Sequence record: OM362897.1
DNA length: 64,000 bases
Strand: one strand, 5' to 3'
Source: Escherichia phage SKA64
A program made the position numbers and the translations under genes. Positions 25,580-46,730 of the stretch are shown piece by piece (positions within the stretch are counted from its first letter, which is position 1; every line of letters begins with the position of its first letter). Under the pieces are notes generated by a model. It ran no database searches. It was not told the DNA's origin and worked only from the letters and a program-made list of their open reading frames with translations.

Positions 25580-25585
25580 AACTTA

Positions 25586-30265: not shown

Positions 30266-30278
30266 TAAGGAGCTAAAA

Positions 30279-30752: not shown

Positions 30753-30764
30753 GAGGAGATTAGT

Positions 30765-30986: not shown

Positions 30987-30989
30987 GTG

Positions 30990-31017
30990 TTGACATAGTT
31001 CTTAAAAAGAGTAAGAT
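30990..31017 (+). promoter_or_regulatory. sigma70-like promoter
   Basis: TTGACA-N16-TAAGAT. Confidence 0.6.
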
Positions 31018-31029
31018 ATATCACATGAA

Positions 31030-31048
31030 GCGGGGAATAGTTCCCCGC
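31030..31048 (+). promoter_or_regulatory. PeSL-like 5' leader stem-loop (only plus-strand copy)
   Basis: GCGGGGAA-TAG-TTCCCCGC between promoter and AGAGGAGAAAAG RBS. Confidence 0.55.
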
Positions 31049-31065
31049 AAAGAGAGGAGAAAAGA

Positions 31066-32040
31066 ATGCAACTTGGTTTCCCCATTATTGATGTAGTTGT
31101 TTTAGTTGGTATTTTAGCATTGTCTATTGGTATCGATTTCTTTGGTCACAAAGAAAATAAAGAAATTTCATTCAAATCCGCAGTTGATTGGTCGATCTTT
31201 TGGATTGGTGTATCATTAGCTTATTATGGTTTTGTATACTTCCAACATGGTGCCGATTTTGCTAACTTGTTTTTAAGTGGATATGTGTTGGAAAAATCTT
31301 TGTCGGTAGATAACTTAGTAGTATTTGTAGCAGTATTCGCAAGTTTTGGTATTAAAAGCACACACTTGCAGCACAAGATTCTACTTTGGGGTATTGCAGG
31401 TGCGATTGTCTTCCGAGGTGTGTTTGTAGCAGTAGGCACTTACTTGTTAAGTTTGGGCTGGTATGTTAATATCTTCTTCGGTGCGGTCATCCTTTTCTGT
31501 GCAGCTAAAATGGTATTTGCTGGAGATAATGACGCAGAAGTTGATTACTCTAAACACTGGGCTACCCGTATTGTTCGTAAACTGTTCCCTGTATCTAATA
31601 AAATGGATGGGGAGAAGTTCTTCACAATCGAAAATGGTGTTCGTGTAGCAACTCCAGCTTTGGTTTGCGTATTCGTGATGGAAATGGTGGATGTAATCTT
31701 TGCAGTAGATTCGGTTCCAGCGGTGATCGCAGTGACACAAGAACCCCTACTTGTATTCTCTTCGATGTTATGTGCAATCTTAGGTCTACGTGCTCTGTTC
31801 TTTGTTCTTAGTGTCGCACTGAAGTATCTGGTTCACTTGGAGAAAGCAGTTATTGTGGTTCTGGTGTTTGTAGGCGTTAAACTGATGTATCACCCGTTTG
31901 CAGAAACATTGCATGAGAAAATGAGTTTCCTGCCAGCACATATTGATCCAACTATTAGTATGTATATCGTGCTTGGTACTTTGGCCCTTGGTGTTATTGC
32001 AAGCTTTATCTTCCCTGAAAAAGAAGAAGCTACTATTTAA
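31066..32040 (+). CDS. TerC/Alx-family integral membrane protein
   Basis: multi-pass membrane protein; LSGYVLEKSLSVDNLVVFVAVF and FGAVILFCAAKMVFAGD blocks resemble TerC/Alx family. Confidence 0.8.
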   Translation: MQLGFPIIDVVVLVGILALSIGIDFFGHKENKEISFKSAVDWSIFWIGVSLAYYGFVYFQHGADFANLFLSGYVLEKSLSVDNLVVFVAVFASFGIKSTHLQHKILLWGIAGAIVFRGVFVAVGTYLLSLGWYVNIFFGAVILFCAAKMVFAGDNDAEVDYSKHWATRIVRKLFPVSNKMDGEKFFTIENGVRVATPALVCVFVMEMVDVIFAVDSVPAVIAVTQEPLLVFSSMLCAILGLRALFFVLSVALKYLVHLEKAVIVVLVFVGVKLMYHPFAETLHEKMSFLPAHIDPTISMYIVLGTLALGVIASFIFPEKEEATI

Positions 32041-32045
32041 TAAAT

Positions 32046-32070
32046 GAGCCTCCTTCGGGAGGCTATTTTA
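32046..32070 (+). terminator. rho-independent terminator
   Basis: AGCCTCC-TTCG-GGAGGCT followed by ATTTTAT. Confidence 0.65.
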
Positions 32071-32082
32071 TAGGAGAGACTT

Positions 32083-32433
32083 ATGAGTAATTTTGATGAA
32101 ATTCAAGAACTTGTTTGGGATTTATCTGGTGATGTGGATTACATTTCAGATTATCTTTCAAAAGTTTACCCTGGGGTAAGCGTTATGATTGTGACCAAAG
32201 ATCCAATTAGTTTGCCTCCCAATGTTGTAGCTTGTTGTGGAAGTGGTTCAGGAGAAGTAGAGCCTGTATCTCGTTGGGAATTAACTAAAGCTGTTTCAAA
32301 ACGAAACGGTGAAGTTTTGAATATTGATATTGAGCAAATATGGACTTCTCCAGCAGCCAAATGGAATGATCCAAATGGTTGGGATTTGTTCTTCTGGGAT
32401 AATGAGACTGATGATGAGGTGTTTTTAAAATGA
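32083..32433 (+). CDS. hypothetical protein (116 aa)
   Basis: ORF track; AGGAGAGA RBS. Confidence 0.6.
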   Translation: MSNFDEIQELVWDLSGDVDYISDYLSKVYPGVSVMIVTKDPISLPPNVVACCGSGSGEVEPVSRWELTKAVSKRNGEVLNIDIEQIWTSPAAKWNDPNGWDLFFWDNETDDEVFLK

Positions 32434-32675
32434 AATACTTGTTGGTTGTGTTTGAAAATATCTGTTTTGCAATAGGGTTGTTTGTTGTAATTTTTGTATT
32501 GACAAGCGTAATCAACGGCAGTAAAGTGAGTTTATACCGAGATGGAGAGCAACTTTATTGCTTCTCTGGAGATTTCAAACACAGATGTATTAATAGCCAA
32601 AACGAGGAAAGCAAATATGAAAAAACTAGCCCTGATTTTAATTGGTTGTATCTTTTTAACAGCTTGCGAGGATGA
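32430..32675 (+). CDS. small membrane protein (81 aa), overlaps next gene
   Basis: ORF track; ATGA start overlap; hydrophobic N-terminus; 3' end overlaps lipoprotein gene by 59 nt. Confidence 0.35.
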   Translation: MKYLLVVFENICFAIGLFVVIFVLTSVINGSKVSLYRDGEQLYCFSGDFKHRCINSQNEESKYEKTSPDFNWLYLFNSLRG

Positions 32676-33054
32676 AACAAATCCTGCACAATACCAACAA
32701 CCTCCTCAACAATACGCTCAACAAGGATCTGACGGAGATACAACTATTATCAACAATGGTGGCGGTTCTAGTAGTAGCGGTGTTGGTGAGTTTGCTACAG
32801 GTATGTTGTTAGGGCATATGATGAGTGGCGGTAGTAATCGTAGCAGTGGGGATTATAACGATAACAGAACGATTATTAATAAGCATTATAATACACCTAA
32901 ACCGAAAACTAATTTTTATGGTAAGCCTAAACAAGAGATAAAAACTTATGAAAAGCCGAGACAAACTTTTAAAACAAATAGTAGCTATACAACTCGTAAA
33001 TCTTACAATAGCCCTTTAAGTAAAAAGAGTTCATCTCGTAGCAAGCGACGTTAA
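32617..33054 (+). CDS. lipoprotein with Gly/Ser-rich linker
   Basis: start ATG 32617 after GAGGAAAG; signal peptide plus lipobox LTAC; GGGSSSSG low-complexity segment. Confidence 0.6.
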   Translation: MKKLALILIGCIFLTACEDETNPAQYQQPPQQYAQQGSDGDTTIINNGGGSSSSGVGEFATGMLLGHMMSGGSNRSSGDYNDNRTIINKHYNTPKPKTNFYGKPKQEIKTYEKPRQTFKTNSSYTTRKSYNSPLSKKSSSRSKRR

Positions 33055-33068
33055 TAAGGAGAAAAACA

Positions 33069-33662
33069 ATGACAATTTCTATTCGTACTTCCATTACAGG
33101 TGTTAAAAGTTTGCCTAATGCTTTGCAAATCACACGTGCTTTGAGGGATACGTTCTCTGCTGTGGATGAGCATAAGATGCTCGATAATCTCTCAAATTGG
33201 CCCTATTTTCATTATTTTAAAAATGAAGACGACGAGTTTATAGACGCTGTTTCTTACGGTTATGATTTCGGTAAGGAGGTTTCCCCTGAAGAATTTGTAG
33301 CTACGGTGTTCCCAAACGGTTTGCCTACTCGCAGTAAACGTAAAAAAGGACCAAAAAACAAGAAACGTGCTACTAATAAAGCTACCATTTTCTTTACTGA
33401 TGGCACACAATATACGATTAAAGACTTTGAAGAGGTATCTTATACAGCAGGTGGGAGTCTTTCTTTCTACACCATCAAAAAACAAAACTATACGTTCAGC
33501 CATGTTTCTAACATGATTGAAATGTTAGTAGAAGATATTGAAAGCGTGGCTGTGTTAGGTATGCATAAAAGCTTTTTAATTACAAATATTTCAGATTTCA
33601 GTGCAAGTTTATCTGGCCCTGATTTTGAAGCCACGACCACGCATTTCGCTTTTAAGGTGTAA
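33069..33662 (+). CDS. hypothetical protein (197 aa)
   Basis: ORF track; TAAGGAGAAAA RBS. Confidence 0.6.
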   Translation: MTISIRTSITGVKSLPNALQITRALRDTFSAVDEHKMLDNLSNWPYFHYFKNEDDEFIDAVSYGYDFGKEVSPEEFVATVFPNGLPTRSKRKKGPKNKKRATNKATIFFTDGTQYTIKDFEEVSYTAGGSLSFYTIKKQNYTFSHVSNMIEMLVEDIESVAVLGMHKSFLITNISDFSASLSGPDFEATTTHFAFKV

Positions 33663-33665
33663 GTT

Positions 33666-34256
33666 ATGCATACCGAGAGAGACTTGCAACTCTTGTGGTG
33701 GGAAGTGATGCAGGAAATAAAAGAAGATTTTCCTGTTTACTACAACATGTTACGTGAAGCAGGATATAAAGCTTGTGTTAGAAACAAAGTGAATAACTCT
33801 TTCGGTTGGTGCAACTACCGAGATAAAATTGTTGTTGTAAATTGGCACTTGCATAAGAACTCCACAAGAGATATGATCGTGGATACAATGAAGCACGAAA
33901 TTGCTCATGCTATTGATGGTTGTATGGGTAAGTTTAGTAGGCACGGTGCTCATTGGCAAAAACTGGCAGCAGAATTAGGGGCTAATCCTAAAGCCACTTC
34001 CAAAGAGCCGTTGAACCACGAATATAAATATGTTCTTGTTCTGGTAGATAGGTTTGCGACAAGATGTGTTAGAGGTTATAATCGTAAACCTAATCGCATG
34101 TACCCAGGTAAGCAACCTAATATGTGGTTGAAATCAGATAAAGAAGGGACCGAAGGAAAATTATGGTTGTATAAATGGGACGATTGGGTTAAAGTAGCTA
34201 AAGAGTACGGTGTTTCACCATATATAAGAGATGCAGAAGAGGAGAATGAAGAATGA
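33666..34256 (+). CDS. SprT-like zinc metalloprotease domain protein
   Basis: HExxH motif in MKHEIAHAIDG followed by HGAHW. Confidence 0.5.
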   Translation: MHTERDLQLLWWEVMQEIKEDFPVYYNMLREAGYKACVRNKVNNSFGWCNYRDKIVVVNWHLHKNSTRDMIVDTMKHEIAHAIDGCMGKFSRHGAHWQKLAAELGANPKATSKEPLNHEYKYVLVLVDRFATRCVRGYNRKPNRMYPGKQPNMWLKSDKEGTEGKLWLYKWDDWVKVAKEYGVSPYIRDAEEENEE

Positions 34257-35365
34257 CAAGTCCATTTTTAAAAGCAGCTACTGGTGGTCAGAAGAAGCCT
34301 GAAATGAGCGTATTTGCTGCAACAACAGATGCAAGTAAATCTGTATTCGCTCCAAGCGTGTTAGATGCCAGTCCTGTTTATGCACCAGCGGCACCGCAAG
34401 AAGTTCCAGTTTTGCCTTCTATGACCCGACAAGAGATTGAAGAGATTGGGGCAGAGGCAGGAACAACCTTGCGTTCCTTGAATGCCGAGGTGTTAAAACA
34501 TCAACGTAGTAATCAAGGCGATCAGATGAGTGAACGACTCACAGCTTTGATTAAACAGGCAAAACAACTTGATCCAAACTCTATTAAACAAAGCAAGGGT
34601 ATTACTAAACTCATTAAAAAAGTTATGGGTATGAAAGAAGACCTGTTCGGGGAGTTTGATAATGTTAATAACCGTATTGAAGAGTTGGTAAAGAACCTTC
34701 AAATGGATATTCGCAAAGAAGAAGATTCCTTGGTATATCTTGAAAAGCTACATCAAGCTATTGGACAATATGCTGCAAGTTTGAACCGAGATATGCAGCT
34801 TCTAACAGCAACCTATGAAAAAGAAGAACAAGCTTTGGCTGCTCTTCCAGAAGATGCAGTAGAACAGCGACAAGTGATCCGAGATACTTTGGATCTTCTG
34901 GAGATTCGTATTGCAGATTTAAAAGCATTGCGCCTACTGTGTGTCCAAATGGGACCGCGTGTACAAGGTATGCAAAAAGTTTCTGCAAGCTTAATGCGAT
35001 CTGCGCGTAACATAGTAAATAATGTTATTCCTGCTTACTCTGCTAACTTCTCAATGTATATCGAGAGCTTACGTCAAATGAAAGCAGCAGAGACGCAGAA
35101 TAACGTTCTTGATGAATTTAACCTGGCAATTAAACTGGGTAGCGATCTTGCCACACAGAATCAGATCGAAGCAGCAGCACTGGCTAACCGTCAAGTGTTG
35201 GATATTGAAACTCTGCGTCACGATCAGGAAAACTTGGTTAAGATGCTGGAAGAAACTAACCGCATCAATACGGAAGCCCGTGCTGCTCGTGTTGATTATA
35301 TTAATGAAGTTCAATCTCTGGAAGACGGGATGGTAGCTGCTGTGAAACGAGGGCTTGGTAAATGA
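34253..35365 (+). CDS. coiled-coil protein, TelA-like candidate
   Basis: 370 aa, largely helical with heptad-like repeats; assignment is contextual (sits in Ter-type cluster). Confidence 0.3.
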   Translation: MTSPFLKAATGGQKKPEMSVFAATTDASKSVFAPSVLDASPVYAPAAPQEVPVLPSMTRQEIEEIGAEAGTTLRSLNAEVLKHQRSNQGDQMSERLTALIKQAKQLDPNSIKQSKGITKLIKKVMGMKEDLFGEFDNVNNRIEELVKNLQMDIRKEEDSLVYLEKLHQAIGQYAASLNRDMQLLTATYEKEEQALAALPEDAVEQRQVIRDTLDLLEIRIADLKALRLLCVQMGPRVQGMQKVSASLMRSARNIVNNVIPAYSANFSMYIESLRQMKAAETQNNVLDEFNLAIKLGSDLATQNQIEAAALANRQVLDIETLRHDQENLVKMLEETNRINTEARAARVDYINEVQSLEDGMVAAVKRGLGK

Positions 35366-35559
35366 GAATCCGTATCTATATAATTGATGAAGACATTGGT
35401 GTCCGTTATGATGACGAAAAACGATTCGCACCGATGGGAGGCATATATCCCCCAAGTGTTCTAGCAGTTTGTCGTGATTGTTATATTTATGAAGGTTGTC
35501 GTAACTTCCGTAAATTCGAACTCCTTGCAGATATTGACTTCAATGAGGAGGAGGAGTAA
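35362..35559 (+). CDS. hypothetical protein (65 aa)
   Basis: ORF track; overlapping start/stop. Confidence 0.5.
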   Translation: MRIRIYIIDEDIGVRYDDEKRFAPMGGIYPPSVLAVCRDCYIYEGCRNFRKFELLADIDFNEEEE

Positions 35560-35732
35560 TGAAAATATTACGAGTGAATATTGAAACTGCTTGGTGTGGA
35601 TGCAATGAGGTTGTGGATATCGAAATTGAAGATGATATGTCTCAAGAGGATATAGAAGATCTTGCACACGAAACCTTTCAGGATTATTGTAATTACGGGT
35701 TCCATATTTTAGAGGAGGAAGAAGATGTATAA
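35559..35732 (+). CDS. hypothetical protein (57 aa)
   Basis: hand-translated; GGAGGAGGAG RBS; start overlaps upstream stop, and stop overlaps the next start. Confidence 0.4.
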   Translation: MKILRVNIETAWCGCNEVVDIEIEDDMSQEDIEDLAHETFQDYCNYGFHILEEEEDV

Positions 35733-36123
35733 TCCAACAGGTATTCTTTTAAAACTTACAGTAACAGACCCTACTCTTTTCATCAAGTTAGCAAGTGGTG
35801 AAGTTTATGAAGTAATGAAAGATGATGACGGTTGGTGTTATCTTTGTGGCTACTTCCTCTGTGATGCAGAAGAGTTAGAATCCATTGTAACTAAAGGTTT
35901 TTATGAAGAACCAGGGTTCCGTGTGGAAACTACGCAGAAACCTGATACCATTACGTTGACTCGACAGGAACTGATCACAATCATTGAAGATGCTTTTATT
36001 GATGGCTGGAATACACAAGATAATGACTGGGGTGGACCCGAAGCTTTTCTGGAACATCATAAAGCTTATGGAGAATTTTGTGAAACCACTGTAGCTCTTG
36101 ATAATCTGAAGGAGGGTTTGTAA
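35725..36123 (+). CDS. hypothetical protein (132 aa)
   Basis: ORF track; GAGGAGGAAGAAG RBS. Confidence 0.6.
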   Translation: MYNPTGILLKLTVTDPTLFIKLASGEVYEVMKDDDGWCYLCGYFLCDAEELESIVTKGFYEEPGFRVETTQKPDTITLTRQELITIIEDAFIDGWNTQDNDWGGPEAFLEHHKAYGEFCETTVALDNLKEGL

Positions 36124-36686
36124 TGGGTTGTTTTAGCTTTTTGTGCAAAGAATCGGGCAAAGCTGCCCTTTCTACTTCTTTCGACGGATCACCTTGCTAC
36201 CTCTTTCTTTTGAAGGACGGTGTTGTTATTGAAGAGATGTATGGCAACTATGATAGTTATGGTTGTGTTTTCTCTGGAAAGGAGGATGAAAATGGTGTTC
36301 GTGAACGATTTGAATGGGCTATGGATTGGAGTAAGGTTTGTGATTTGATGCATTCCTCAAATCCAAGAGACGGTATCGCTATGGTGCTGGAAGAGTACTT
36401 TACAGGTGAAATCCCTACAGAACAATCTGACGGAGATCCTAACCAAGGTTGGGGTGATGGTGAAGAAGATCCAGATTGTTTTTTCAGCACAGAAAAGAAT
36501 AAGTTTAAACGTGTTGACAACCCTTATCACAAAGTGCATAATACTCTCATTGAAACAGAAGATGACAAGATGGAAATTGAAGAAGATGATCCTCTTGTAA
36601 CACTTCCTATAAGTGAGTTACAAAAGATCACTAAGGAAGCTTACGATTTGGGCTTCAAAATTGGTAGAGGAGGTATGCGTGTTTAG
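36123..36686 (+). CDS. hypothetical acidic protein (187 aa)
   Basis: ORF track; GGAGGG RBS. Confidence 0.6.
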   Translation: MGCFSFLCKESGKAALSTSFDGSPCYLFLLKDGVVIEEMYGNYDSYGCVFSGKEDENGVRERFEWAMDWSKVCDLMHSSNPRDGIAMVLEEYFTGEIPTEQSDGDPNQGWGDGEEDPDCFFSTEKNKFKRVDNPYHKVHNTLIETEDDKMEIEEDDPLVTLPISELQKITKEAYDLGFKIGRGGMRV

Positions 36687-36957
36687 ATTCAATATTCAAG
36701 AAGAAAAAAGTCAAGATTTACCTATTGCTTTCGAAGATCTTGACGTAGGGGCAACATTCATGTATTATGATGCCTATGAAGACGCAGGGTTGGATACGTA
36801 CCGTAACTTGGTGTTCATTAAAAATTCCACAAACAGTGCGATTTGTATTAATGGATCACTAGCACAACGAGGCTATACTCATTGCATCCCACCAGATACA
36901 AATATGGTGGAAGTAGATTTAGAAGTTACCAATATTACACTTAAGAAGGAGAAATAA
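36679..36957 (+). CDS. small protein, paralog 1 (92 aa)
   Basis: GTG start after AGAGGAGG; paralog of 37979..38248 (DLDVG.TF.Y...). Confidence 0.5.
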   Translation: MFRFNIQEEKSQDLPIAFEDLDVGATFMYYDAYEDAGLDTYRNLVFIKNSTNSAICINGSLAQRGYTHCIPPDTNMVEVDLEVTNITLKKEK

Positions 36958-36958
36958 T

Positions 36959-37753
36959 ATGTCCGAGAAAATCAGCCTGAAAAAACGTCAAGAAAACCTT
37001 GCTTTCTCTCTGAAAAAGAATAAGAACCTGAATGAAGGTAAGATTGTTCTTCGTGTAGCATGTGCTCTAGATATTTCTGGTAGTATGCATGGTCTATATT
37101 CTAGTGGGGTAGTGAGTGATTTTGTAGGTAAACTGCTTCCTTTTGGTATGTTGTTCGACGATAATCAACAAATTGATATGTGGGCCTTCAATACGAGTTC
37201 CCAAGAGCTTACTCCAGCAACAGCAGACGTTTACGACGACTATGTTGGTAAATGTATGCGTAATGTTCGTATCGGAGGTGGAACAAATTACGCCCCTGTA
37301 ATGGCAGATATCTACGATGAGTATTTTGGCACTGTTACCAAATATATTACCACTAAACAAGTGGTACAAGAGGAGGCTCCAAAGAAAGGCTTCTTTAATC
37401 GTCTGCTTGGTAAAACTGAAACAGTGTCTGTAGAGCGTGAAAAAGTTGTAGCTGTATCAGAACCAGGTGCTGACGTTACCCCTGGTGTTGTATTCTTCCA
37501 GACGGATGGTGAGAATGGTGATCCTAGTGCTGTTCGTCGTCTTATCGAAGAGAATAAGAATAAACCTATTTATTGGTTCATGGTTGGCGTTGGTAATGAG
37601 AAGTTTGGCTTCCTGAAAGAACTGGCAAATGCTTATGATAATGTTGGTTTTATTGGCATTAAAGATTTAGACTTGACAGATTCAGAGCTTTATGACAAAC
37701 TCTTATCTGAAGAGTTCGGAGAGTGGGTTGTTAAAGTAGGTGCTAAAAAATGA
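36959..37753 (+). CDS. von Willebrand factor A domain protein (TerY-like)
   Basis: MIDAS motif DISGSM; N-terminal ISLKK/FSLKK repeat shared with TerD gene. Confidence 0.7.
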   Translation: MSEKISLKKRQENLAFSLKKNKNLNEGKIVLRVACALDISGSMHGLYSSGVVSDFVGKLLPFGMLFDDNQQIDMWAFNTSSQELTPATADVYDDYVGKCMRNVRIGGGTNYAPVMADIYDEYFGTVTKYITTKQVVQEEAPKKGFFNRLLGKTETVSVEREKVVAVSEPGADVTPGVVFFQTDGENGDPSAVRRLIEENKNKPIYWFMVGVGNEKFGFLKELANAYDNVGFIGIKDLDLTDSELYDKLLSEEFGEWVVKVGAKK

Positions 37754-37998
37754 TCGACGAGCTTGCCTCTCAAGTCATAGAAAATTATTGGCGCGAGAGA
37801 GAAGCTTTCATTATGCGCAGTCTCAAAGAGTATTTCATTGGGACTGTGCGAATGGAAGATATTGTAAGTAGAGTGGAGATTCATGTATGGCCCGATTATG
37901 AAGAATGGGTTGACAAAGAAAATGAAAATGCTATAATTCTTCGTATATACAAACCGGAGATAACATTAGGAGGAAGAAGTGTTAAACTTCGAAATTGA
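37750..37998 (+). CDS. hypothetical protein (82 aa)
   Basis: ORF track. Confidence 0.55.
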   Translation: MIDELASQVIENYWREREAFIMRSLKEYFIGTVRMEDIVSRVEIHVWPDYEEWVDKENENAIILRIYKPEITLGGRSVKLRN

Positions 37999-38248
37999 TG
38001 AGCAAAAAGTAAATAAACGATGCCTTACCATTAAAGATTTGGATGTAGGAGATACTTTCGTCTATGAAAATGCATTTGACGAAAATGGTTTAGACCTTAG
38101 TGAAATCATTGTTTATTTAAAAGTAGATGATGGGGAAAATGATTATTCTGCTGTAGAACTAAACCATCATGCACAATTAGTATCAATCCAAAGCACATCT
38201 AAGCTTTTGGAAGTAGAATTGACTGTAACTGGTATTACACTTAAATAA
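37979..38248 (+). CDS. small protein, paralog 2 (89 aa)
   Basis: GTG start after GGAGGAAGAA. Confidence 0.5.
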   Translation: MLNFEIDEQKVNKRCLTIKDLDVGDTFVYENAFDENGLDLSEIIVYLKVDDGENDYSAVELNHHAQLVSIQSTSKLLEVELTVTGITLK

Positions 38249-38263
38249 TAGAGGAGACAAAAG

Positions 38264-38866
38264 ATGACTGATAAAATTTCCCTGAAAAAAGGCTCTAGCG
38301 AAAAAATTTCCCTGAAGAAGGTTGCTCCGGCTCTGAAAGAACTGCGCCTGGAATTCTCTTGGAAGTCTGATTCTAAACTGGATCTGGATGTAAGTGCACT
38401 GGTTTGTCGTCACAATGCCGCTGGCAATCCTGAAATGCTGTCTGCACGTCATCTTGTTTGCTATGCTAACAAGTTTGATCCTGAACGTTCTACCTTCGCT
38501 GGTGACGATGTTCGTGATGGCACTGGCAGCATGGAGCAGATCGATATTACTCTGGCTAAAATCTCTCCTGATGCACAAGAGATTGCCTTTGTTCTGACCA
38601 TTGATGATGATACAGGTCTGAAACGTTTTGGTCATGCTTCTGAAGGTATGCTTAAAATCTTCGACTCCGAGCGCAATGTGGAAATTCTGGATTTTGACTT
38701 CCTGGCTCCTGAAGTAGCTGGCAACACAATCTGCCACGTGGCTTCCTTGGTTCGTGAAGATGGGGAATGGAAGCTGAAAGCATATGGTGTAGGCAAAGCT
38801 GGTCTGGATATTTGTGATGTGGTGATGGCCTTCGGTGGTAAAAAAGAATGGTATGAATGTCCATAA
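38264..38866 (+). CDS. TerD-domain protein
   Basis: ISLKKGSSEKISLKK...LDLDVSALVC N-terminus and GEWKLKAYGVGKAGL C-terminus resemble TerD family. Confidence 0.8.
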   Translation: MTDKISLKKGSSEKISLKKVAPALKELRLEFSWKSDSKLDLDVSALVCRHNAAGNPEMLSARHLVCYANKFDPERSTFAGDDVRDGTGSMEQIDITLAKISPDAQEIAFVLTIDDDTGLKRFGHASEGMLKIFDSERNVEILDFDFLAPEVAGNTICHVASLVREDGEWKLKAYGVGKAGLDICDVVMAFGGKKEWYECP

Positions 38867-38965: not shown

Positions 38966-39487
38966 TTGCTGATAAAAAACTTTGTAACAGTTGCGTTACT
39001 ATCCTTAACTGCTTTTACATTTACACCTGTTGTGGCGAAAGCCGAAGCTGCAAACGTAAAAACCGCTAAAGTAGTTCACAAATGTACAAAGCAATATAAT
39101 GATAAAATTCTATTAGCTTGTGCAATTTACGCAGAAGGTCGCGGTCTGGGTAAAAAAGGAATGAATGCCGTTGGGAATGTGGTAATCAACAGAAGAAATG
39201 ATACCTACTTCCCTAACACAGTCAGAGGGGTCTTGTTCCAGAAAGGGCAATTCTCATATGCGAAAACTTTTAACGTAACAGAGAAAGATAAGTGGCAGGA
39301 AGCAAAAGCAATAGCGGAGCGTTTACTTTATTTAGAGAAACATTTTCCTGAATTGCGGTCTGTTTTAGATGTTACTAAAGGTGCTCTATACTTCAAGAAA
39401 CGGAATATAAGGACACACTGGGAACGTGATATGCGTCTTGTTTATCGAGATAAAGTGCATGGTTTCTATCTACCAAAGGGGAGTTAA
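38966..39487 (+). CDS. SleB-like cell-wall hydrolase with N-terminal signal/anchor (endolysin candidate)
   Basis: TTG start after AAAGGAGG; hydrophobic N-terminus; AIYAEGRGLGKKGMNAVGNVVINR and VLFQKGQFS resemble SleB-type hydrolase. Confidence 0.65.
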   Translation: MLIKNFVTVALLSLTAFTFTPVVAKAEAANVKTAKVVHKCTKQYNDKILLACAIYAEGRGLGKKGMNAVGNVVINRRNDTYFPNTVRGVLFQKGQFSYAKTFNVTEKDKWQEAKAIAERLLYLEKHFPELRSVLDVTKGALYFKKRNIRTHWERDMRLVYRDKVHGFYLPKGS

Positions 39488-39773: not shown

Positions 39774-40003
39774 TGGGAGAAGTCATTGAAGTCAATTTTC
39801 GCACTAAACAGAAAGTGCAAAAATATGTCGTTATTAAAAACATTTGCGTTGTCTGCTTCAATACAGTAATATACGACTCACGACGCGGAGAAAACGAAAA
39901 TGAACCTTACATTGAAATTTCTAAGAACAAAGGTCAATGTATTTGTAAGAACTGTGCAGTAGCTATTAAGGAGGTTGTAAATGAAAACGCTTGGGACCAA
40001 TGA
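39773..40003 (+). CDS. Zn-ribbon protein (76 aa)
   Basis: ATG at 39773 (TGATG overlap); CVVCF...CKNC. Confidence 0.5.
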   Translation: MGEVIEVNFRTKQKVQKYVVIKNICVVCFNTVIYDSRRGENENEPYIEISKNKGQCICKNCAVAIKEVVNENAWDQ

Positions 40004-40172
40004 AACTGGCGAGATCTCTCTTCAAGAAGTGACAAACGACAAACTGATTAAACTACGGGACGTAGCCCGTGACCATCTCCAAGAATCTTTTAAAGAATAT
40101 ATGGAAGCACGAGATCGTGTGATTCAGATCCAACAAGAAATGATTAAACGTGGGATTGTAGCTGACAGTTAA
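39981..40172 (+). CDS. hypothetical protein (63 aa)
   Basis: ORF track; TAAGGAGG RBS. Confidence 0.55.
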   Translation: MKTLGTNETGEISLQEVTNDKLIKLRDVARDHLQESFKEYMEARDRVIQIQQEMIKRGIVADS

Positions 40173-40188
40173 TATAACGGAGGGGAGA

Positions 40189-40752
40189 ATGATTTATTAT
40201 ATTACTCCCTATCTGACAGGAAATATCGGCAAGGCTATCAATGAAGCCATTGCCGTTCTTCCAGATGATAGTTGGGTGTGTTTAAGAGATACCGATACAA
40301 TGTTCCTCCTACCTGATCAACCATCTATGCTTGAAGAGCTTGTTATGTCAAACCCGCCTTTTGATGTAATAGGTGCAACTTGTAACAGGTTAGGTAGTGG
40401 TTATCAGCTTTTCTCTAACCAAATTAACGATGATCCCGATATTCTAAACCATATAGAATATGCTAAGATTGCAAGAGAATATCATAAAGTGAGTGTTGAA
40501 GAAGTTCCTTTCGGAACACCTCTGGCAGGTTTCTTTTTGCTTTTTAGAAAATCATTGTGGAATGAAATTCCTTTCGAAGAAAAATCTATCCAATTCGACT
40601 TAATTTTCTCTCGCACTTTACATGAAAAAGGAAAGAGGTTAGGATTGATGCGGGGAATGTATCTGTTTCACATTTACAGATTAGGTCAAACAAATCCTCA
40701 ACGGTCTATACATCATTTATTACACTGTCATGATCACAGTAAAACTATTTAG
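40189..40752 (+). CDS. putative glycosyltransferase-like protein
   Basis: ORF track; GGAGGGGAGA RBS; LRDTDTMF possible DxD-like motif; weak. Confidence 0.35.
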   Translation: MIYYITPYLTGNIGKAINEAIAVLPDDSWVCLRDTDTMFLLPDQPSMLEELVMSNPPFDVIGATCNRLGSGYQLFSNQINDDPDILNHIEYAKIAREYHKVSVEEVPFGTPLAGFFLLFRKSLWNEIPFEEKSIQFDLIFSRTLHEKGKRLGLMRGMYLFHIYRLGQTNPQRSIHHLLHCHDHSKTI

Positions 40753-40760
40753 GAGAGAAA

Positions 40761-41444
40761 ATGGAAAATATTAAAATCGGAGTGGGTGTTATCACTGTAG
40801 GTGTCCGTCCACTTAAAGACTACCTTGTAACAGATCCACGTGCAGATTTTCGAGTATTCAACGATCCAGATCGTAAAGGTGTAGCTTATGCCAGGAATGA
40901 ACTTATGCACCAGTTTTATGAAGAAGGTTATGATTATTGGTTTATTTTTGACGATGATTGCTACCCAGTCATGGAGGGATGGGAAACATACTTTGTAGAT
41001 CAAGCTGTCTCTGGAGGATGGGATTTCTTTGGTATGCCGGAGTATTTCAAAGATAAAGTTGTTGGAAGCAAAGGAGAAGTTATTCTCTGGGAACTTGCAA
41101 TGTGTCAATTTGCAATGTATTCTCGTGCCGTTGTTGAGAAGATGGGTTATTTCCGTCCTTACACTCACGGTTATGGTTTTGAAGATGCTGAATGGGGACA
41201 CCGTTTGCAAGCTGCTGGTTTGAATCATGGTATTCAGGCAACACCTTGTCCACTTCGTATCATGGCTTATATCCACCCAGACGATGTTTTTGGAAACAAT
41301 CCTATGCCTTTTGCTAACCTGACAAAAGAAGAGAAAGAGGCTGCTATTGGGATTAACTGGGAAGAATATAAAGCATCTTTAGAGGATATTAAAAATGGGA
41401 AAATCCGAATTTCCTATGAGGAGGCACTAGCACATGTCAAATAA
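40761..41444 (+). CDS. family-2-like glycosyltransferase (GT-A fold)
   Basis: GVAYARNELMHQF, DxD-type FIFDDDCYP, GYGFEDAEWGHRL. Confidence 0.55.
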   Translation: MENIKIGVGVITVGVRPLKDYLVTDPRADFRVFNDPDRKGVAYARNELMHQFYEEGYDYWFIFDDDCYPVMEGWETYFVDQAVSGGWDFFGMPEYFKDKVVGSKGEVILWELAMCQFAMYSRAVVEKMGYFRPYTHGYGFEDAEWGHRLQAAGLNHGIQATPCPLRIMAYIHPDDVFGNNPMPFANLTKEEKEAAIGINWEEYKASLEDIKNGKIRISYEEALAHVK

Positions 41445-42381
41445 AAAATGGTCTAAACTAAAAATTGATGCAAAACCTCACAGCGGTTGTGACTATCATC
41501 GTATTGTTATACCATTTAACAACAATAATATTCAACCTAAGAAAGATGTTGTTGTGTTTAACCGTATCCACTCTAAAGGTGCAGAATACGTTTTATCTTT
41601 GAAACGTCAAGGTGTTAAGGTTGTTGTAGACTTAGATGATTTTTACCAACTTAATCCAGAACATTATTTAGCAAGTCTATACGAGTCAAACACTCATGCT
41701 ATTGTAGCTATGGTTAAGCTTGCTGATGTGGTTATTGTGACTACGGAATATTTGGCATATAAGATCCGTCACTTAAATAGGAATGTTGTTGTGATCCGAA
41801 ATGCACTTCCTTTTGATAGCGGACAATTCACTTTGTCAAATGATCGTTCATCCGGTACCCCTGTTGTATGGGCTGGCGGTGCTAGTCACGAACCAGACTT
41901 ACGACTAGTCTCTAATACTTTCGATGATGAACTTCTTACTATTGCGGGATATGAAGCATCACAAAGCATCACGGGACAAGAGTGGATTAAGATTCGCAGA
42001 AATTTACCAAATGCCAAATATAAAGCCGCTGTAAAAGATTTAGATAATTACATGAGTGTTTACGAAAGTCATGCTATTGCTATAGCTCCTTTGGTAGATA
42101 ATGATTTTAATAATTGTAAAAGTAATCTCAAAATCCTGGAAGCTGGAGCAAAAGGTATTCCAATTGTTTGTTCTAAGGTATTACCTTATTTTAACCCTGT
42201 AGATGCTCGCGCTGTTGCTTACGCAGAGAATAAAGCAGAATGGCATTACGAAATTGTTAAGCTTCTTCGCAATCCAAACTATCGGGAAGATCGTGGCTTG
42301 TTCTTGGCTGAACATGTTCGAACACATTATAATCTGGCAGATGCAAACGAGTTGCGACGCCAGGTTATTGAAAGTTTGTAG
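41434..42381 (+). CDS. putative glycosyltransferase, paralog 1
   Basis: ORF track; shares CD(Y/F)HR(I/V)V(I/L)P, LDD, VWAG, APL(V/I)DN.FNN.KSNLKILEAGAKG with next gene. Confidence 0.4.
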   Translation: MSNKKWSKLKIDAKPHSGCDYHRIVIPFNNNNIQPKKDVVVFNRIHSKGAEYVLSLKRQGVKVVVDLDDFYQLNPEHYLASLYESNTHAIVAMVKLADVVIVTTEYLAYKIRHLNRNVVVIRNALPFDSGQFTLSNDRSSGTPVVWAGGASHEPDLRLVSNTFDDELLTIAGYEASQSITGQEWIKIRRNLPNAKYKAAVKDLDNYMSVYESHAIAIAPLVDNDFNNCKSNLKILEAGAKGIPIVCSKVLPYFNPVDARAVAYAENKAEWHYEIVKLLRNPNYREDRGLFLAEHVRTHYNLADANELRRQVIESL

Positions 42382-42388
42382 GTGAAGT

Positions 42389-43333
42389 ATGGGACAAATA
42401 ATTCTTGACAATCGTAACGGAATCAATTATAGTGTCTGCGATTTCCATAGGGTAGTGCTGCCTTACTCAAGGCAGTTCTCTTCACAACCTAAACACAACG
42501 TTTTCGTTTTTAACGGAGTGCCAACAAAAGGTAAAGAGGGCTTTTTAGCCCTTAAAAACCTAGGCTTTAAAATGGTTATGGATTTGGATGACTCTTTAGT
42601 TATTCCAAAAGGACACATGTTAGAAGGTATTTTTGAATCAGGTATTCGTGAACATTTAAAATGGTTTTTAGAGCACAGCGATCTTGTTACAACTACGACA
42701 CCTGCTTTGCAAGTTGAACTTTCACAATACAATGATAATGTGCACATAATCCCTAATGGTCTTCCTTACGATGAAGGTCAATTTGTGTTGACCCGTGATC
42801 GCTACTCCAAAACTCCATTAGTCTGGGCGGGAAGTGAAACACATAAACAAGATTTGGCTATCTTGCCCGATTTTGGTAAAGATCTTACGATATGTGGTTT
42901 TCGTAGGGATTCTGAAGTTTTAAGTAGTCGTGAATGGTCTGTGATCAGAGAAAATGTAGCACCAACTTGTGTTTATGAAGGTGTAAGACCATATGCCAAC
43001 TACATGGAATCTTACGATGGTCATCAAATCAGTCTTGCGCCATTGATTGATAACGTGTTTAATAATGCAAAAAGCAATCTTAAAATTCTTGAGGCAGGTG
43101 CTAAGGGTTTACCTTTGATCTGTTCTCCTCGTGAGAATTATCATACACAAGAGTTTAAAGATTTGTTATTCTTTGCTGAAACGCCTTCCGAGTGGAAAGA
43201 TATTACGGAATACTTATTAAGTGCTCCCGATGTTTGCATGGAGAAAGGATTAGCATTAGCTAAGTATGTCAGGACTCATTATCACATTGATGTGTTGAAT
43301 GAGCGTCGTAGACTTTTATTTGAGGAGCTATAA
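42389..43333 (+). CDS. putative glycosyltransferase, paralog 2
   Basis: ORF track; tandem paralog of 41434..42381. Confidence 0.4.
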   Translation: MGQIILDNRNGINYSVCDFHRVVLPYSRQFSSQPKHNVFVFNGVPTKGKEGFLALKNLGFKMVMDLDDSLVIPKGHMLEGIFESGIREHLKWFLEHSDLVTTTTPALQVELSQYNDNVHIIPNGLPYDEGQFVLTRDRYSKTPLVWAGSETHKQDLAILPDFGKDLTICGFRRDSEVLSSREWSVIRENVAPTCVYEGVRPYANYMESYDGHQISLAPLIDNVFNNAKSNLKILEAGAKGLPLICSPRENYHTQEFKDLLFFAETPSEWKDITEYLLSAPDVCMEKGLALAKYVRTHYHIDVLNERRRLLFEEL

Positions 43334-43611
43334 TGATTAACACTTTTGATTTTGAATACACCACTCGTAACGGGAAAGCTTTAGTCGTGGAGGTGGATTA
43401 CTATTATGAAGAGCCTAACCCGCTTTCTCGTGAAAGTGATTGGGATTACCACGGAGGGCTTTTAATTGACGGTATTCGTTTTTATGAAGGCTCTACAGAA
43501 GTTTTTGAAAAAGATTTAAATGTGACTGTAGCAGAAATTGCTTTCCAATTTAGAAAGCATATGGAAGAACTAGAAGCAGAATATATGATGGAGACTAACG
43601 AACCATTTTAA
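43333..43611 (+). CDS. hypothetical protein (92 aa)
   Basis: ORF track; GAGGAG RBS. Confidence 0.6.
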   Translation: MINTFDFEYTTRNGKALVVEVDYYYEEPNPLSRESDWDYHGGLLIDGIRFYEGSTEVFEKDLNVTVAEIAFQFRKHMEELEAEYMMETNEPF

Positions 43612-43623
43612 CAGGAGAACAAA

Positions 43624-45402
43624 GTGTCGCACATTATAACTAAATATGGATTTGATGTTGATCTTAGCAAGGAAGGGCATACAGGTTGTCCGCGCTGCAT
43701 GAAAAATGGCAAGGATCGCTCTCGTAATAACCTGATGGTTTATGGATTAGATTCTAATGGAGAGCATAAAGGTGCTAAGTGCTTTGCGTGTGAATACACT
43801 ATTCCTAGCGTAGAATGGTTACGAGAAAATGGTGAAGTTTTAGAAGAAGAGGAGGAGATTGTGGGTTCGGAATTTAATAAACAGATTCATCGTAAAATTG
43901 TTCAAGAAACATCAACCAACCCACGTGGTTATCGAGGCATTAAAGAAAAAGTTTCATCTTTCTATGGTGTTCGTTATGAATACCGTCAGGAAGGGGATCA
44001 GATGGTAGTAGAAAGTTGTTTATATCCAACTACTATCGGTAAAGAGTTGGTTGGTTTTAAGCGTCGTATTCATCCTAAAGATTTCAGTAAACCTATTGGT
44101 CAAGTAGGTAAAGATGTAGATCTTTTTGGACAAATTCGTTTTGCAGACCGTTCTCATACTGTGGTAATTACAGGTGGTGAACACGATGCTCTGGCAGCTT
44201 ATCAAATGCTGTCTGAAAACTTGGACAACAAATATGAACTTCCAGCAGTAGTTAGTGGCACAACTGGTGAAACCAGTATGTATAAACAAGTTCAGGCACA
44301 ATATCCTTTCTTTGAAAAATTTAAGAAGATTATTGTTTGCATGGATAATGACAAAGCAGGTAATGAGGCATTTGAAAATATTGTTAAGGTGCTGCCTCGT
44401 AACAAAGTCTACCGTATGCAGATGGATCTTAAGGATGCCAATCAGTATCTGGAAGAAGGTCGTGCAAAAGATTTCGTAAAAGCTTTTTGGAGTGCTCGTC
44501 TATACACCCCAGCAGGTGTTTATGCTTCTAATGTCTTGTATGAAGCTGCATTAGAATGCTTGGAATCCAAGATGATTACCTTGCCTCCTTTTATGCGTGT
44601 TGCTGCAAATATGCTGGGTGGTGGTTTAGTAGAGGAAGAGATTACAGTCATCCTGGCAAAGACCAGTATCGGTAAAACTTTGATGGTGAATGAGATCACC
44701 AAACATATTATTGTTGCACACCCAGAACATACCCTAGGTATTCTGTCCTTGGAAGCAACTTATAAGAAATATTCTCGTAACCTGTTGTCCTCGTTCCTGC
44801 ATATTCCTCTACACAGGAAAACACCGGAAGAGAAATTTCAAATCTTGGAAGAGAATAAAGAAAAAATCTTAGATTTTTACGAAAGAGAAGATGGATCGCC
44901 ACGTTTTTATGTGTGTGATGATCGTGGAGCAGATGTGGAGTCTATCAAAGAAAAAGTTTTGGAGATGATCATCTATTTTGGAGTAACAATTCTTGTTATC
45001 GACCCTTATTCTGATTTGCTTTCTGGTATGGATGTTCAAGCCCAGGAAGAGTTAGCAACATGGTTGAAGCGCATCATGAAAGAGTATGCTATAACTATTA
45101 TCGTCATCTCACACGTTAAGAAATCGGCTAATGGTGGCAATGAACACTTAACAGAGGACGATGCAATGGGTAGTAGTTTCTTGGCTAAAGGTGCTGGTAT
45201 TACCTTGGCTTTGGAACGAGATAAAGCCGCTGAAGATCCTGTAGAACGTAATACGACTCATTGCTTTATCCTAAAAAACCGTGAGTTCTCGGAAACTGGT
45301 CCGGCAGGGCAGTTTTACTATGACATTAGAACTGCAACTCTGCATGACAAAGAGCAGTATTTCAACAATCCTGCTAATTTGCCTACGGATAGCAACTATT
45401 AA
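43624..45402 (+). CDS. T7 gp4-type bifunctional DNA primase-helicase
   Basis: GTG start; N-terminal Cys4 Zn-ribbon (CPRC...CFAC), TOPRIM acidic motifs (ITGGEHD, CMDNDKAG), helicase P-loop AKTSIGKT. Confidence 0.85.
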   Translation: MSHIITKYGFDVDLSKEGHTGCPRCMKNGKDRSRNNLMVYGLDSNGEHKGAKCFACEYTIPSVEWLRENGEVLEEEEEIVGSEFNKQIHRKIVQETSTNPRGYRGIKEKVSSFYGVRYEYRQEGDQMVVESCLYPTTIGKELVGFKRRIHPKDFSKPIGQVGKDVDLFGQIRFADRSHTVVITGGEHDALAAYQMLSENLDNKYELPAVVSGTTGETSMYKQVQAQYPFFEKFKKIIVCMDNDKAGNEAFENIVKVLPRNKVYRMQMDLKDANQYLEEGRAKDFVKAFWSARLYTPAGVYASNVLYEAALECLESKMITLPPFMRVAANMLGGGLVEEEITVILAKTSIGKTLMVNEITKHIIVAHPEHTLGILSLEATYKKYSRNLLSSFLHIPLHRKTPEEKFQILEENKEKILDFYEREDGSPRFYVCDDRGADVESIKEKVLEMIIYFGVTILVIDPYSDLLSGMDVQAQEELATWLKRIMKEYAITIIVISHVKKSANGGNEHLTEDDAMGSSFLAKGAGITLALERDKAAEDPVERNTTHCFILKNREFSETGPAGQFYYDIRTATLHDKEQYFNNPANLPTDSNY

Positions 45403-45425
45403 GGGCTTCGGCCCTTTTATTAAAA
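45401..45425 (+). terminator. rho-independent terminator
   Basis: AAGGGC-TTCG-GCCCTT then TTATT. Confidence 0.65.
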
Positions 45426-45432
45426 ATACCTG

Positions 45433-45461
45433 TTGACAACTTTACGGAAGGGACTTATACT
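45433..45461 (+). promoter_or_regulatory. consensus sigma70 promoter
   Basis: TTGACA-N17-TATACT. Confidence 0.65.
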
Positions 45462-45494
45462 TGTCTCATCAACCAAACAAGAGGAGAAGTAAAA

Positions 45495-45926
45495 ATGCGT
45501 ATGACAATCGATCTGAATGCAAAAGTTAAAGCTGCTGGTGCTCTGGGTGCTGGTGTTATTAAACACAAACAAGCGTTGGCATTTGCCATCCCACATATGA
45601 TTGTTGAGGATCATCCTGAAGAGTTTGCTGTAAAAGTTGTTGAGAACAATGTCTCTGTTATTGAACATCTTCCAACTGGACGTTCTTACCGTGTTGTTTC
45701 TTCTAAAGGTTTCCGTTTCGATGTAAGCCCTTCTTTCACAAAAGGTGCTGGTCGTAGTAAAGTGGGTATTCTTTCTTACAAATATTATATCGATAAAGTT
45801 GCAGATGGTGTCGCATTCTGTCGTGTAAGTGAAGGTAAAGTAGATATCATCTTTAAAAATACCAAAAACATGGTTATTTCTGACGATGGTAAAGTTGACC
45901 TCACTATTGAGTTCGCTAACAACTAA
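45495..45926 (+). CDS. hypothetical protein (143 aa), likely abundant
   Basis: ORF track; strong promoter and GAGGAGAAG RBS. Confidence 0.6.
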   Translation: MRMTIDLNAKVKAAGALGAGVIKHKQALAFAIPHMIVEDHPEEFAVKVVENNVSVIEHLPTGRSYRVVSSKGFRFDVSPSFTKGAGRSKVGILSYKYYIDKVADGVAFCRVSEGKVDIIFKNTKNMVISDDGKVDLTIEFANN

Positions 45927-45935
45927 GGAGGACTA

Positions 45936-46730
45936 TTGAGCAAGTTGAATACACTTGATCAATATTACACTAACCCCGCTTATGCGGGGTTCTTATGTGA
46001 TAAGATCAAAGAAATTTTTGGAGAGGAAGCTAACTACGTAGAACCATCTGCGGGAGAAGGAGCTTTCTCTTCTTGTTTTAAAAACATAACTTCTTTTGAT
46101 ATTGACCCTAAGTTTGAAGATTGTATTGAGGCAGATTTTTTAGCTCAATCTGTTGAGTCTGTTGGCAGTGTAACTGCTTTTGTCGGTAATCCTCCGTTTG
46201 GAAAAAATGCCAGTCTTGCCATTAAGTTCTTTAACCATTGTGCTGAAATGTTGGATAACGAAGGTGGTATTTGTTTTATCTTGCCTCGCACATTTCAAAA
46301 AATCTTTTTTGCACACAAACTAAATCCCCACATGCATCTTCTTTACGAAGAAGAATGTCCAAAAGGATCTTTTATTCTTCATGGAGAACCTTGGGATGTT
46401 CCTTGTGTATTCCAGATATGGATTAAACGCAACGAGAAGCGTTCTCCCGTTGTTTTAGGAGAGAATCGACTGTTCGTATTAGGTAACAGTAAAGACTACG
46501 ATATAGCCGTTAGGAGAGCGGGAGCAAGTGCAGGTAAAGTGTTATCAGAAGAGGATTCTTTATCTGAAGCATCTACCTATTTTTTAAAAACCTTGACTTC
46601 TGATCTTAAAACGCGTATCATTGAGGCTTACCCGTTACTTAAAGCTGAAGCTAGTAAAACTGCGGGAGTAAGAAGTTTAAGTTTAAAAGAACTTCAGTGG
46701 GTTCTGGAGAACATTAGAAAGGAGGAATAG
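45936..46730 (+). CDS. DNA N6-adenine methyltransferase (orphan)
   Basis: TTG start after AAGGAGG; motif I EPSAGEGAF and motif IV VGNPPFGK. Confidence 0.65.
   Translation: MSKLNTLDQYYTNPAYAGFLCDKIKEIFGEEANYVEPSAGEGAFSSCFKNITSFDIDPKFEDCIEADFLAQSVESVGSVTAFVGNPPFGKNASLAIKFFNHCAEMLDNEGGICFILPRTFQKIFFAHKLNPHMHLLYEEECPKGSFILHGEPWDVPCVFQIWIKRNEKRSPVVLGENRLFVLGNSKDYDIAVRRAGASAGKVLSEEDSLSEASTYFLKTLTSDLKTRIIEAYPLLKAEASKTAGVRSLSLKELQWVLENIRKEE

Follow-up and report, generated by a model that had tools for sequence, protein, structure and literature searches.

Within a 64,000-nucleotide stretch of DNA from Escherichia phage SKA64 (sequence record OM362897.1), which we call the window, lies a set of four adjacent genes that encode glycosyltransferases (GTs), two of the GT-A and two of the GT-B class. 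Our best guess, which we advance tentatively, is that their products O-glycosylate virion proteins in successive steps, attaching a glycan that contains a deoxyhexose. The four soluble cytoplasmic enzymes would act in turn, building a short hetero-oligosaccharide on capsid, decoration, tail or fibre subunits of the phage before or during assembly of the virion. At least one of the donors would be deoxythymidine diphosphate (dTDP)-L-rhamnose or another 6-deoxyhexose, giving a glycan that probably contains rhamnose, with the phage RmlABCD enzymes supplying the donor on top of the host pathway. The modification might benefit the phage by shielding or stabilising the virion, say, or by altering its adsorption or its recognition by the immune system.

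The glycosyltransferase genes and their products

We find four open reading frames (ORFs) in tandem, ORF1 (40189-40752, 187 amino acids), ORF2 (40761-41444, 227 amino acids), ORF3 (41434-42381, 315 amino acids) and ORF4 (42389-43333, 314 amino acids), all on the + strand and with coordinates identical to those in an initial annotation made from the letters of the window. That annotation had described the products as glycosyltransferase-like, and PHROG profiles match all four (ORF1, phrog_14179, E 8.5e-113; ORF2, E 1.2e-78; ORF3, E 1.2e-148; ORF4, phrog_7162, E 1.9e-145), every family being labelled glycosyltransferase. The enzyme class is further supported by the conserved motifs, by the models of ORF2 and ORF3 and by the relatives of ORF1. 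Hundreds of homologues exist, and on this comparison of sequences ORF1-4 are real genes and not chance reading frames.

ORF1, which had been proposed as a possible second GT-A, is a small soluble protein that contains the sequence RDTDT, a DxD-type motif of the form RD-x-DT. The protein has no direct match in Pfam or NCBIfam, and its class is indicated by its relatives. The profile of the family recovers 986 cluster representatives, and in fusion relatives the homologous domain itself passes the thresholds of two GT2 families, PF00535 (P0171, E 2.2e-11) and PF13641 (P0285, E 7.7e-11). Residues D34, D36, T37, N66-R67-L68 and H161-x-Y163-R164 are invariant among 21 homologues. By homology, then, ORF1 is a probable GT2-like GT-A glycosyltransferase. 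The domains to which its relatives are fused include TOD1/MUCI70 GT-like, GT2 and methyltransferase domains.

In ORF2 the predicted DxD and GYGFED motifs are both present, within FIFDDDCYP and HGYGFEDAEW. D64-D65-D66 is invariant across 18 sequences down to 36% identity, as is Y138-G139-x-E141-D142. The model (predicted local distance difference test, pLDDT, 89) has a single Rossmann-like alpha/beta/alpha nucleotide-sugar-binding domain, a GT-A fold resembling those of GT2, GT7 and GT27, and its structural neighbours include TarP, TarS, RmlT and SpsA. The scores lie below the Pfam gathering thresholds for TAGT (19.5 against 27.5), Glyco_transf_7C (13.6 against 23) and Glycos_transf_2 (13.3 against 23.3). 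Judged from the model, ORF2 is a divergent member of the GT-A class that is recognised by structure and PHROG only, and it is presumably inverting and metal-dependent. ORF1 and ORF2 have no detectable sequence similarity and a profile-profile comparison between them was also negative, so we treat them as independent GT-A lineages. An NCBIfam search gave no match, and PDB sequences, searched with each of the three families by sequence and by profile, gave spurious matches only.

ORF3 is a compact GT-B of GT4-like type that is common to temperate phages and Burkholderiaceae adhesin operons, and ORF4 is its diverged tandem paralog, found only in large myoviruses. Their paralogy, noted initially for two proteins of about 315 amino acids, is evident from 41% identity over 303 residues (E 1e-77). 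The model of ORF3 (pLDDT 94) has two Rossmann domains with a cleft between them, as in GT-B enzymes, and a search of a viral structure library returned generic group-1 GT neighbours only. ORF4 just passes the cut-off for PF13524 (25.2 bits against 25), ORF3 is below the cut-offs for PF13524 (20.4) and PF13692 (22.8), and 33 of the 38 members of the family match PF13524, the best with E 9.4e-10. All the invariant residues of the family are retained in ORF4. The E-x7-E motif of retaining GT4 enzymes is only half present, in that the second glutamate, E236, is invariant (...KSNLKILEAG...) and a nearly invariant cysteine, C228, stands eight residues before it. The family is for this reason an atypical GT4-like branch; we presume that ORF3 is a retaining enzyme.

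The duplication that gave rise to ORF3 and ORF4 is old, since both types have been kept as orthologues in diverged large myoviruses, with identities for the ORF3 and ORF4 types of 79 and 82%, 73 and 77%, and 56 and 50% respectively. The two types stay about 40% identical to each other, and the single-copy versions in other phages are of the ORF3 type. In GT-B enzymes the N-terminal domain binds the acceptor; here it is slightly more diverged between the paralogs (38% identity) than the C-terminal donor domain (44%). On these sequence comparisons the retention of both genes is more in keeping with two different steps than with redundancy. The presence of four distinct GTs, the ancient duplication that has been kept, and the fusions of ORF1 relatives with GT and methyltransferase domains together fit the assembly of an oligosaccharide better than the addition of a single-sugar mark.

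ORF4 is followed by ORF5 (43333-43611, + strand), which encodes an acidic protein of 92 amino acids that matches phrog_4240 (unknown function; E 6.4e-33) and has no match in Pfam; whether it belongs to the glycosyltransferase system is uncertain. ORF5 separates the GT genes from a primase-helicase (43624-45402, + strand, GTG start) with Toprim and DnaB_C domains, so the cluster does lie upstream of that gene as first described. ORF1 to ORF5 all begin with ATG and, like the primase-helicase, have strong Shine-Dalgarno sites. The junctions are tight, with an 8-bp gap between ORF1 and ORF2, an 11-bp overlap between ORF2 and ORF3, a 7-bp gap between ORF3 and ORF4 and a 1-bp overlap between ORF4 and ORF5, where the start codon of ORF5 overlaps the stop codon of ORF4 in an arrangement for translational coupling. 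Four terminator-like sites were found, against 4.7 expected from shuffled sequence, and none of them is in an intergenic gap of the operon. Given the tight junctions and the lack of excess terminator sites, ORF1-5 look like one transcription unit with the primase-helicase. The G+C content of the operon equals that of its flanks.

No transmembrane segment is predicted in any product encoded between 39981 and 45402 (maximum 19-residue Kyte-Doolittle hydropathy ≤1.65), and the operon encodes no flippase-like or polymerase-like membrane partner. Three of the ORF1-4 proteins are acidic. Soluble enzymes with intact motifs, encoded in an operon that has no membrane partner, support a virion-protein acceptor.

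Of 101 phage records that match the region from 40000 to 45500, the best 25 show 98.6-99.6% identity to it, and all of these are phAPEC8-like Escherichia myoviruses or are labelled as such. The window phage is a Phapecoctavirus (a phAPEC8-like myovirus) of the subfamily Stephanstirmvirinae. Across the same region it has 99.4% identity to phage tuntematon (NC_052660), whose counterparts of ORF1-4, gp113-gp116, are all named "glycosyltransferase" in RefSeq; GenBank submitters have mostly called the same four genes "hypothetical". ORF1-4 are thus a known, annotated gene set that is without functional characterisation, and finding them is not in itself new. Our search of the literature found no paper that ties these genes to a function.

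The cassette in other phages, prophages and bacteria

Gene order in other genomes indicates that ORF2 and ORF3 form a widespread mobile phage cassette, of which ORF2 is a core member, usually placed at the junction of lysis, packaging and head genes. A scan of viral contigs gave at least 561 relatives. The best 79 loci were analysed using our own ORF calls, hidden Markov models (HMMs) of the families, and seeds for TerL, portal, major capsid protein (MCP) and primase, and were grouped into 19 lineages at ≥55% identity. A gene for TerL, portal or MCP lies on the same strand a few genes away in 11 of the 19, and the head module itself holds the cassette in lineages 2, 11 and 12, where the GT gene follows that for MCP or portal. 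Only two lineages, both of large myoviruses, have the primase-helicase and DNA polymerase context that is seen in the window, and the context of six was not assigned by the seeds used. That the cassette adjoins or enters the packaging and head genes in 11 lineages is in line with virion proteins as the acceptor.

The homologues of ORF3 that are filed as bacterial are mostly in prophages, where the cassette is closely set among the genes of the late operon. In Pseudomonas prophages the order is holin, ORF2-like (43% identity), ORF3-like, TerS, TerL, portal, MuF, scaffold, cement and MCP. An Enterobacter prophage has ORF1-like (44%), a short-chain dehydrogenase/reductase (SDR) type dehydratase/epimerase, ORF2-like (38%), ORF3-like, HNH, TerS and TerL. 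A sugar epimerase and a GT are ahead of the terminase in Streptomyces phage Zuko; in Paraburkholderia J67 the GT follows TerL, MCP and portal; and in Cellulophaga phage phi12:1 a PF13578 methyltransferase and a two-domain GT lie between portal/MuF and protease/MCP.

The prophage cassettes have no promoter or terminator signals above shuffle expectation, by simple scans that give weak evidence. In G+C content they match their surroundings at three of the four loci checked (L005, L010 and L011) and are 4-6 points lower at the fourth, the Enterobacter prophage (L006). We considered that the prophage cassettes might be morons and set this aside, given that these weak scans gave no excess of promoters or terminators and no deviation in G+C content except in the Enterobacter prophage.

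The methyltransferase of phi12:1 merits separate mention. The protein with the PF13578 (Methyltransf_24) domain, which is annotated as "DNA methyltransferase", is encoded directly upstream of the two-domain GT gene and overlaps it (gp39-gp40; locus L014, 4868-6540). The same domain is also fused to an ORF1 relative, P0184. We think the phi12:1 protein more likely to be an O-methyltransferase acting on a sugar or a protein than a DNA methylase.

Homologues of ORF3 with 41-45% identity also occur at a conserved chromosomal locus in Burkholderia dolosa, Trinickia symbiotica and Trinickia sp. LjRoot230 (L009, 2821-8236; L012, 1742-8026; and L102). The order there is an invasin/intimin-type inverse autotransporter (IAT_beta, Big_1 and Invasin_D3 domains), a beta-rich protein of 555-571 amino acids and then the ORF3-family GT, with two further conserved proteins of unassigned function encoded on the opposite strand. 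Neither an ORF2-like gene nor genes for polysaccharide export were seen at these loci. GTs dedicated to adjoining adhesins are a well-known pattern, and the locus therefore hints at a protein acceptor for the ORF3 family. On its gene content it is a candidate adhesin-glycosylation system, of which we know no earlier description, and as a pointer to a protein acceptor it supports the virion-protein reading.

Donor sugar and acceptor

The rml genes lie outside the 64,000-nucleotide window. In the genome of a near-identical phage rmlB, rmlA, rmlC and rmlD are found beside nrdAB and thyX, about 70 kb from the GT block, and the link to the donor therefore rests on the genomes of near-identical phages. 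Among phage records the taxon distribution of RmlC is nearly that of the GTs, and since both belong to the core genes of a single clade this is not independent evidence. Of greater weight are the SDR-type dehydratases or epimerases of nucleoside diphosphate (NDP) sugars that three other lineages encode within the cassette or beside it, i.e., the Enterobacter prophage, a viral contig (L023) and Streptomyces phage Zuko. A natural Phapecoctavirus isolate, ESCO37 (OM386659), is without rmlA and rmlB (PMC10269720). It retains the four GTs, so the phage pathway would be a supplement to that of the host. We infer a 6-deoxyhexose donor from these genes. The donor link that is made by the rml genes and by the NDP-sugar enzymes embedded in the cassette is consistent with glycosylation of virion proteins.

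There is precedent for such an acceptor in mycobacteriophages, where GTs of the Che8 type reportedly add glycans to subunits of the capsid and the tail tube (PMC12363180, PMC11256854), and this too favours virion proteins. A number of observations weigh against them. Among the weakest points of the proposal are the position of the GTs in the window phage, which is in the replication block with primase-helicase and DNA polymerase as neighbours and not structural genes, and the lack, in the literature searched, of direct evidence for a glycosylated virion protein in Phapecoctavirus or Justusliebigvirus. In genomes of 35-50 kb we estimate a baseline of roughly 30-40% for proximity to packaging genes by chance. 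DNA methyltransferases and morons also tend to gather in the stretch ahead of the terminase, and in consequence adjacency alone cannot separate a DNA from a virion target; in 18 loci, indeed, a ParB-N6/N4 methylase separates TerL from the GT. The structures that rank highest as neighbours of ORF3 are GT4 enzymes that act on lipids, sugars or small molecules. No domain is common to the Burkholderiaceae proteins (the adhesin, p560, p474 and p245) and any cassette-adjacent or window-phage protein. Lastly, the resemblance to the Che8 enzymes is distant: the N-terminal domain of Che8 gp108 is 23% identical to ORF2 (pairwise E 1e-3), which is a likeness at the level of the superfamily, the HMMs of the window families recover no Che8 protein, and there is no match to gp109 or gp110.

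The GTs might instead remodel glycans of the host envelope, using the phage dTDP-rhamnose to modify lipid-linked intermediates of the lipopolysaccharide (LPS) core, O-unit, enterobacterial common antigen (ECA) or capsule at the cytoplasmic face. Masked receptors could then lead to superinfection exclusion, or progeny could be spared adsorption to debris, and in prophages there would be a conversion function. The best structural neighbours of ORF3 are GT4 enzymes of envelope glycans (HepE, PglA-type, WlaC, PimA/PimB, WbnH, WaaG and WaaB), and the neighbours of ORF2 noted above point in the same direction. The receptors of relatives of the window phage are ECA and LPS outer-core glucose (PMC8594841). 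The junction between lysis genes and terminase is a known site of morons, and the lower G+C content of the Enterobacter cassette also speaks for this reading. Yet a flippase, a polymerase or any other membrane component is missing from the operon, all five of whose products are soluble, and a strictly virulent phage has no lysogen in which conversion could act. In the prophages, packing into the late operon, the lack of signals of their own and the flank-like G+C content in three of four loci indicate expression at lysis and not in the lysogen. Several lineages place the cassette inside the head module, and the neighbours in Burkholderiaceae are adhesin genes and not polysaccharide loci. We consider envelope remodelling unlikely, albeit the alternative to be taken most seriously.

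Somewhat more doubtful is an acceptor of another kind, such as a host protein, RNA, or a small molecule or signal, that would be modified in the course of host takeover or anti-defence. The acceptor could, for instance, be a nucleoside-like product of genes close by. A Ter-type neighbourhood (28792-38866, + strand) encodes a HAD hydrolase, a ComF-like phosphoribosyltransferase (PRTase_3, E 4.5e-42), a Macro domain protein, TerC (E 1e-38), an SprT-like protein, TelA (E 3e-33), a vWA-TerF-like protein (E 1.6e-37) and TerD (E 3e-28). It resembles the Ter-linked gene sets for a "nucleoside-like metabolite" that were reportedly described by Aravind's group. The GT block begins 1.3 kb downstream of it, the apparent early or middle expression context suits a function in takeover, and the neighbours of ORF3 also include GT4 enzymes that act on small molecules (BshA, MshA, SenB, LmbT and a tetrahydrobiopterin GT). 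On the other side, the cassette is present in many small phages that lack Ter genes, where it adjoins packaging and head genes; four GTs exceed the usual need for modifying one small molecule or signal; and the data point to no acceptor that could be named.

Phage DNA is an unlikely target. The idea that the dTDP-rhamnose pathway genes of these phages serve DNA modification was raised when the genes were noted by Olsen et al. 2020 (PMC7552041). The GTs would put rhamnose or other sugars on modified bases of replicating DNA, as in T-even phages, and so evade restriction. A hydroxylated base would be needed as the acceptor, and 5-hydroxycytosine is the product of a ThyA homologue (PMC13326640). 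With T4 gp42 as probe we found no homologue of the ThyA family in the window or in the whole tuntematon genome (best E 0.047), and ThyX is the only such enzyme listed in the annotation of a near-identical phage. An enzyme that makes a hydroxylated base, whether ThyA-type or TET/JBP, is absent, TET/JBP being judged from the annotation of the record alone. There is no b-gt-like sequence in the window or the tuntematon genome, and T4 b-gt compared with ORF1-4 gives E > 1. The TAGT score of ORF2 is below the gathering threshold, T4 AGT and BGT come no higher than 22nd and 36th in the structural matches of ORF3, and the 50 best viral structural neighbours include no T4-type enzyme. The acidic nature of three of the four GTs is a further point against DNA, and in the small-phage cassettes sugar enzymes lie alongside with no base-modifying enzyme.

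Published restriction data point the same way. In a phage collection in which this genus is represented, only the genomes of ESCO10, ESCO47 and ESCO58 were left uncut by HincII; ESCO47 and ESCO58 are Tevenvirinae, and all three are outside the listed Phapecoctavirus and Justusliebigvirus isolates (PMC10269720). The phi92-like phages of the BASEL collection, which belong to the sister genus, have orthologous GTs and rml genes, and they have been reported as "exceptionally susceptible" to restriction-modification systems "despite a putative dTDP glycosylation machinery" (PMC8594841). We regard hypermodification of the T-even kind as highly improbable, and the published idea that the dTDP-rhamnose pathway serves DNA modification is largely retired by this analysis. 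A longer shot again is a non-canonical acceptor, on which ORF1-4 and RmlABCD would build a glycan with rhamnose in it: either DNA, marked sparsely or at specific sites without a hydroxylated base made by ThyA or TET, or the nucleoside-like product of the Ter/PRTase/HAD/Macro set. If true, this would be a new chemistry of phage takeover or anti-defence, of a kind missed by bulk restriction assays.

Neighbouring genes and relation to known systems

Across the whole window the sign of the G+C skew flips at about 16 kb and about 52 kb, matching the switches of coding strand between gene blocks, and the glycosyltransferase operon sits within the long + strand block that these two points bound. A gene for an N6-adenine DNA methyltransferase-like protein (45936-46730, + strand; phrog_5172, with a weak match to the Eco57I family of Pfam) separates the primase-helicase from the DNA polymerase, and in the genome of a near-identical phage at least three further genes are annotated as DNA methyltransferase, one of them within the head module. 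Upstream of the operon (38966-39487, + strand) is a gene for a cell-wall hydrolase of the SleB/Hydrolase_2 type with a hydrophobic, signal-like N-terminus, MLIKNFVTVALLSLTAFTFTPVVAKAEA; it is part of the early/replication block and is distant from the annotated lysozyme and spanin genes.

Two product names in RefSeq, "histidyl tRNA synthetase" (185 amino acids) and "ribonucleotide reductase" (462 amino acids), given to genes at about 23644-25582 of the window (L001, 3645-4202 and 4195-5583), have no Pfam support at E <= 1e-3 and are probably errors of annotation transfer. Three records of about 146.4 kb, MG065689, MG065639 and MG065645 ("Campylobacter phage A110a/A150/A145"), have a GT cluster at 66-72% and RmlC at 62%, as in phi92-like coliphages. 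They look like Justusliebigvirus genomes, and the Campylobacter host label is doubtful.

Phapecoctavirus and Justusliebigvirus are among the most often isolated broad-host-range coliphages, and they have repeatedly been proposed for therapy. If their virions do carry a glycan made by the phage, antibody recognition, pharmacokinetics, stability and possibly adsorption would be affected, as has been reported for mycobacteriophages, and to our knowledge this would be the first known case for a phage of a Gram-negative host. If the genes remodel host glycans instead, the finding would be an ordinary one. The spread of the cassette, its placement at the head junction and the adhesin loci of Burkholderiaceae lead to a hypothesis of protein glycosylation that can be tested. 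What the analysis adds is this hypothesis, with virion proteins as acceptor, for a widespread cassette, together with a reasoned down-weighting of DNA as the target.

Several known systems bear comparison. Among them are the T-even DNA glucosyltransferases (T4 a-gt of GT72 and b-gt of GT63) and the arabinosyl-5-hydroxycytosine systems of RB69, DLP3 and HY126; the sequence tests, which covered b-gt and TAGT, place none of the window enzymes in those two families. Conversion modules of the Gtr type need the GtrA flippase and GtrC, and the window operon is without such membrane proteins. It also differs from prophage conversion enzymes of the Gtr/TarP type in that the window phage is virulent and the prophage cassettes are in the late operon. 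Aah/TibC and HMW1C are analogies for the glycosylation of adhesins, but the heptosyltransferase and HMW1C families are unrelated to the window GTs in fold or family. The cytoplasmic GTs that are dedicated to adhesins, GtfA/Gtf3 of the serine-rich-repeat adhesins and SdgB, are not the best structural matches. Capsid enzymes of giant and archaeal viruses, such as PBCV-1 A64R, STIV A197 and the Mimivirus GTs with their viral rhamnose pathway, are alike only at the level of the fold, come from viruses of eukaryotic or archaeal hosts, and have no synteny with the window genes, although capsid glycosylation in giant viruses is a further analogy for the proposed mechanism.

The remaining comparison is with the mycobacteriophages. 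We considered the window genes as members of the Che8 GT family and did not file them there, the likeness being at the superfamily level only. The two systems differ in that the host of the window phage is Gram-negative and its GTs are in the replication block. Residues 26-155 of ORF2 give weak but significant tblastn matches to the GTs of Cluster F mycobacteriophages (E ~1e-8). Che8 (gp108-110), Corndog (gp38) and Myrna have, like the window, several soluble phage GTs, sometimes joined to a methyltransferase domain. Moreover, the Che8 GT operon lies just ahead of HNH, cos and terminase, the same placement as that of the cassette in the Enterobacter prophage.

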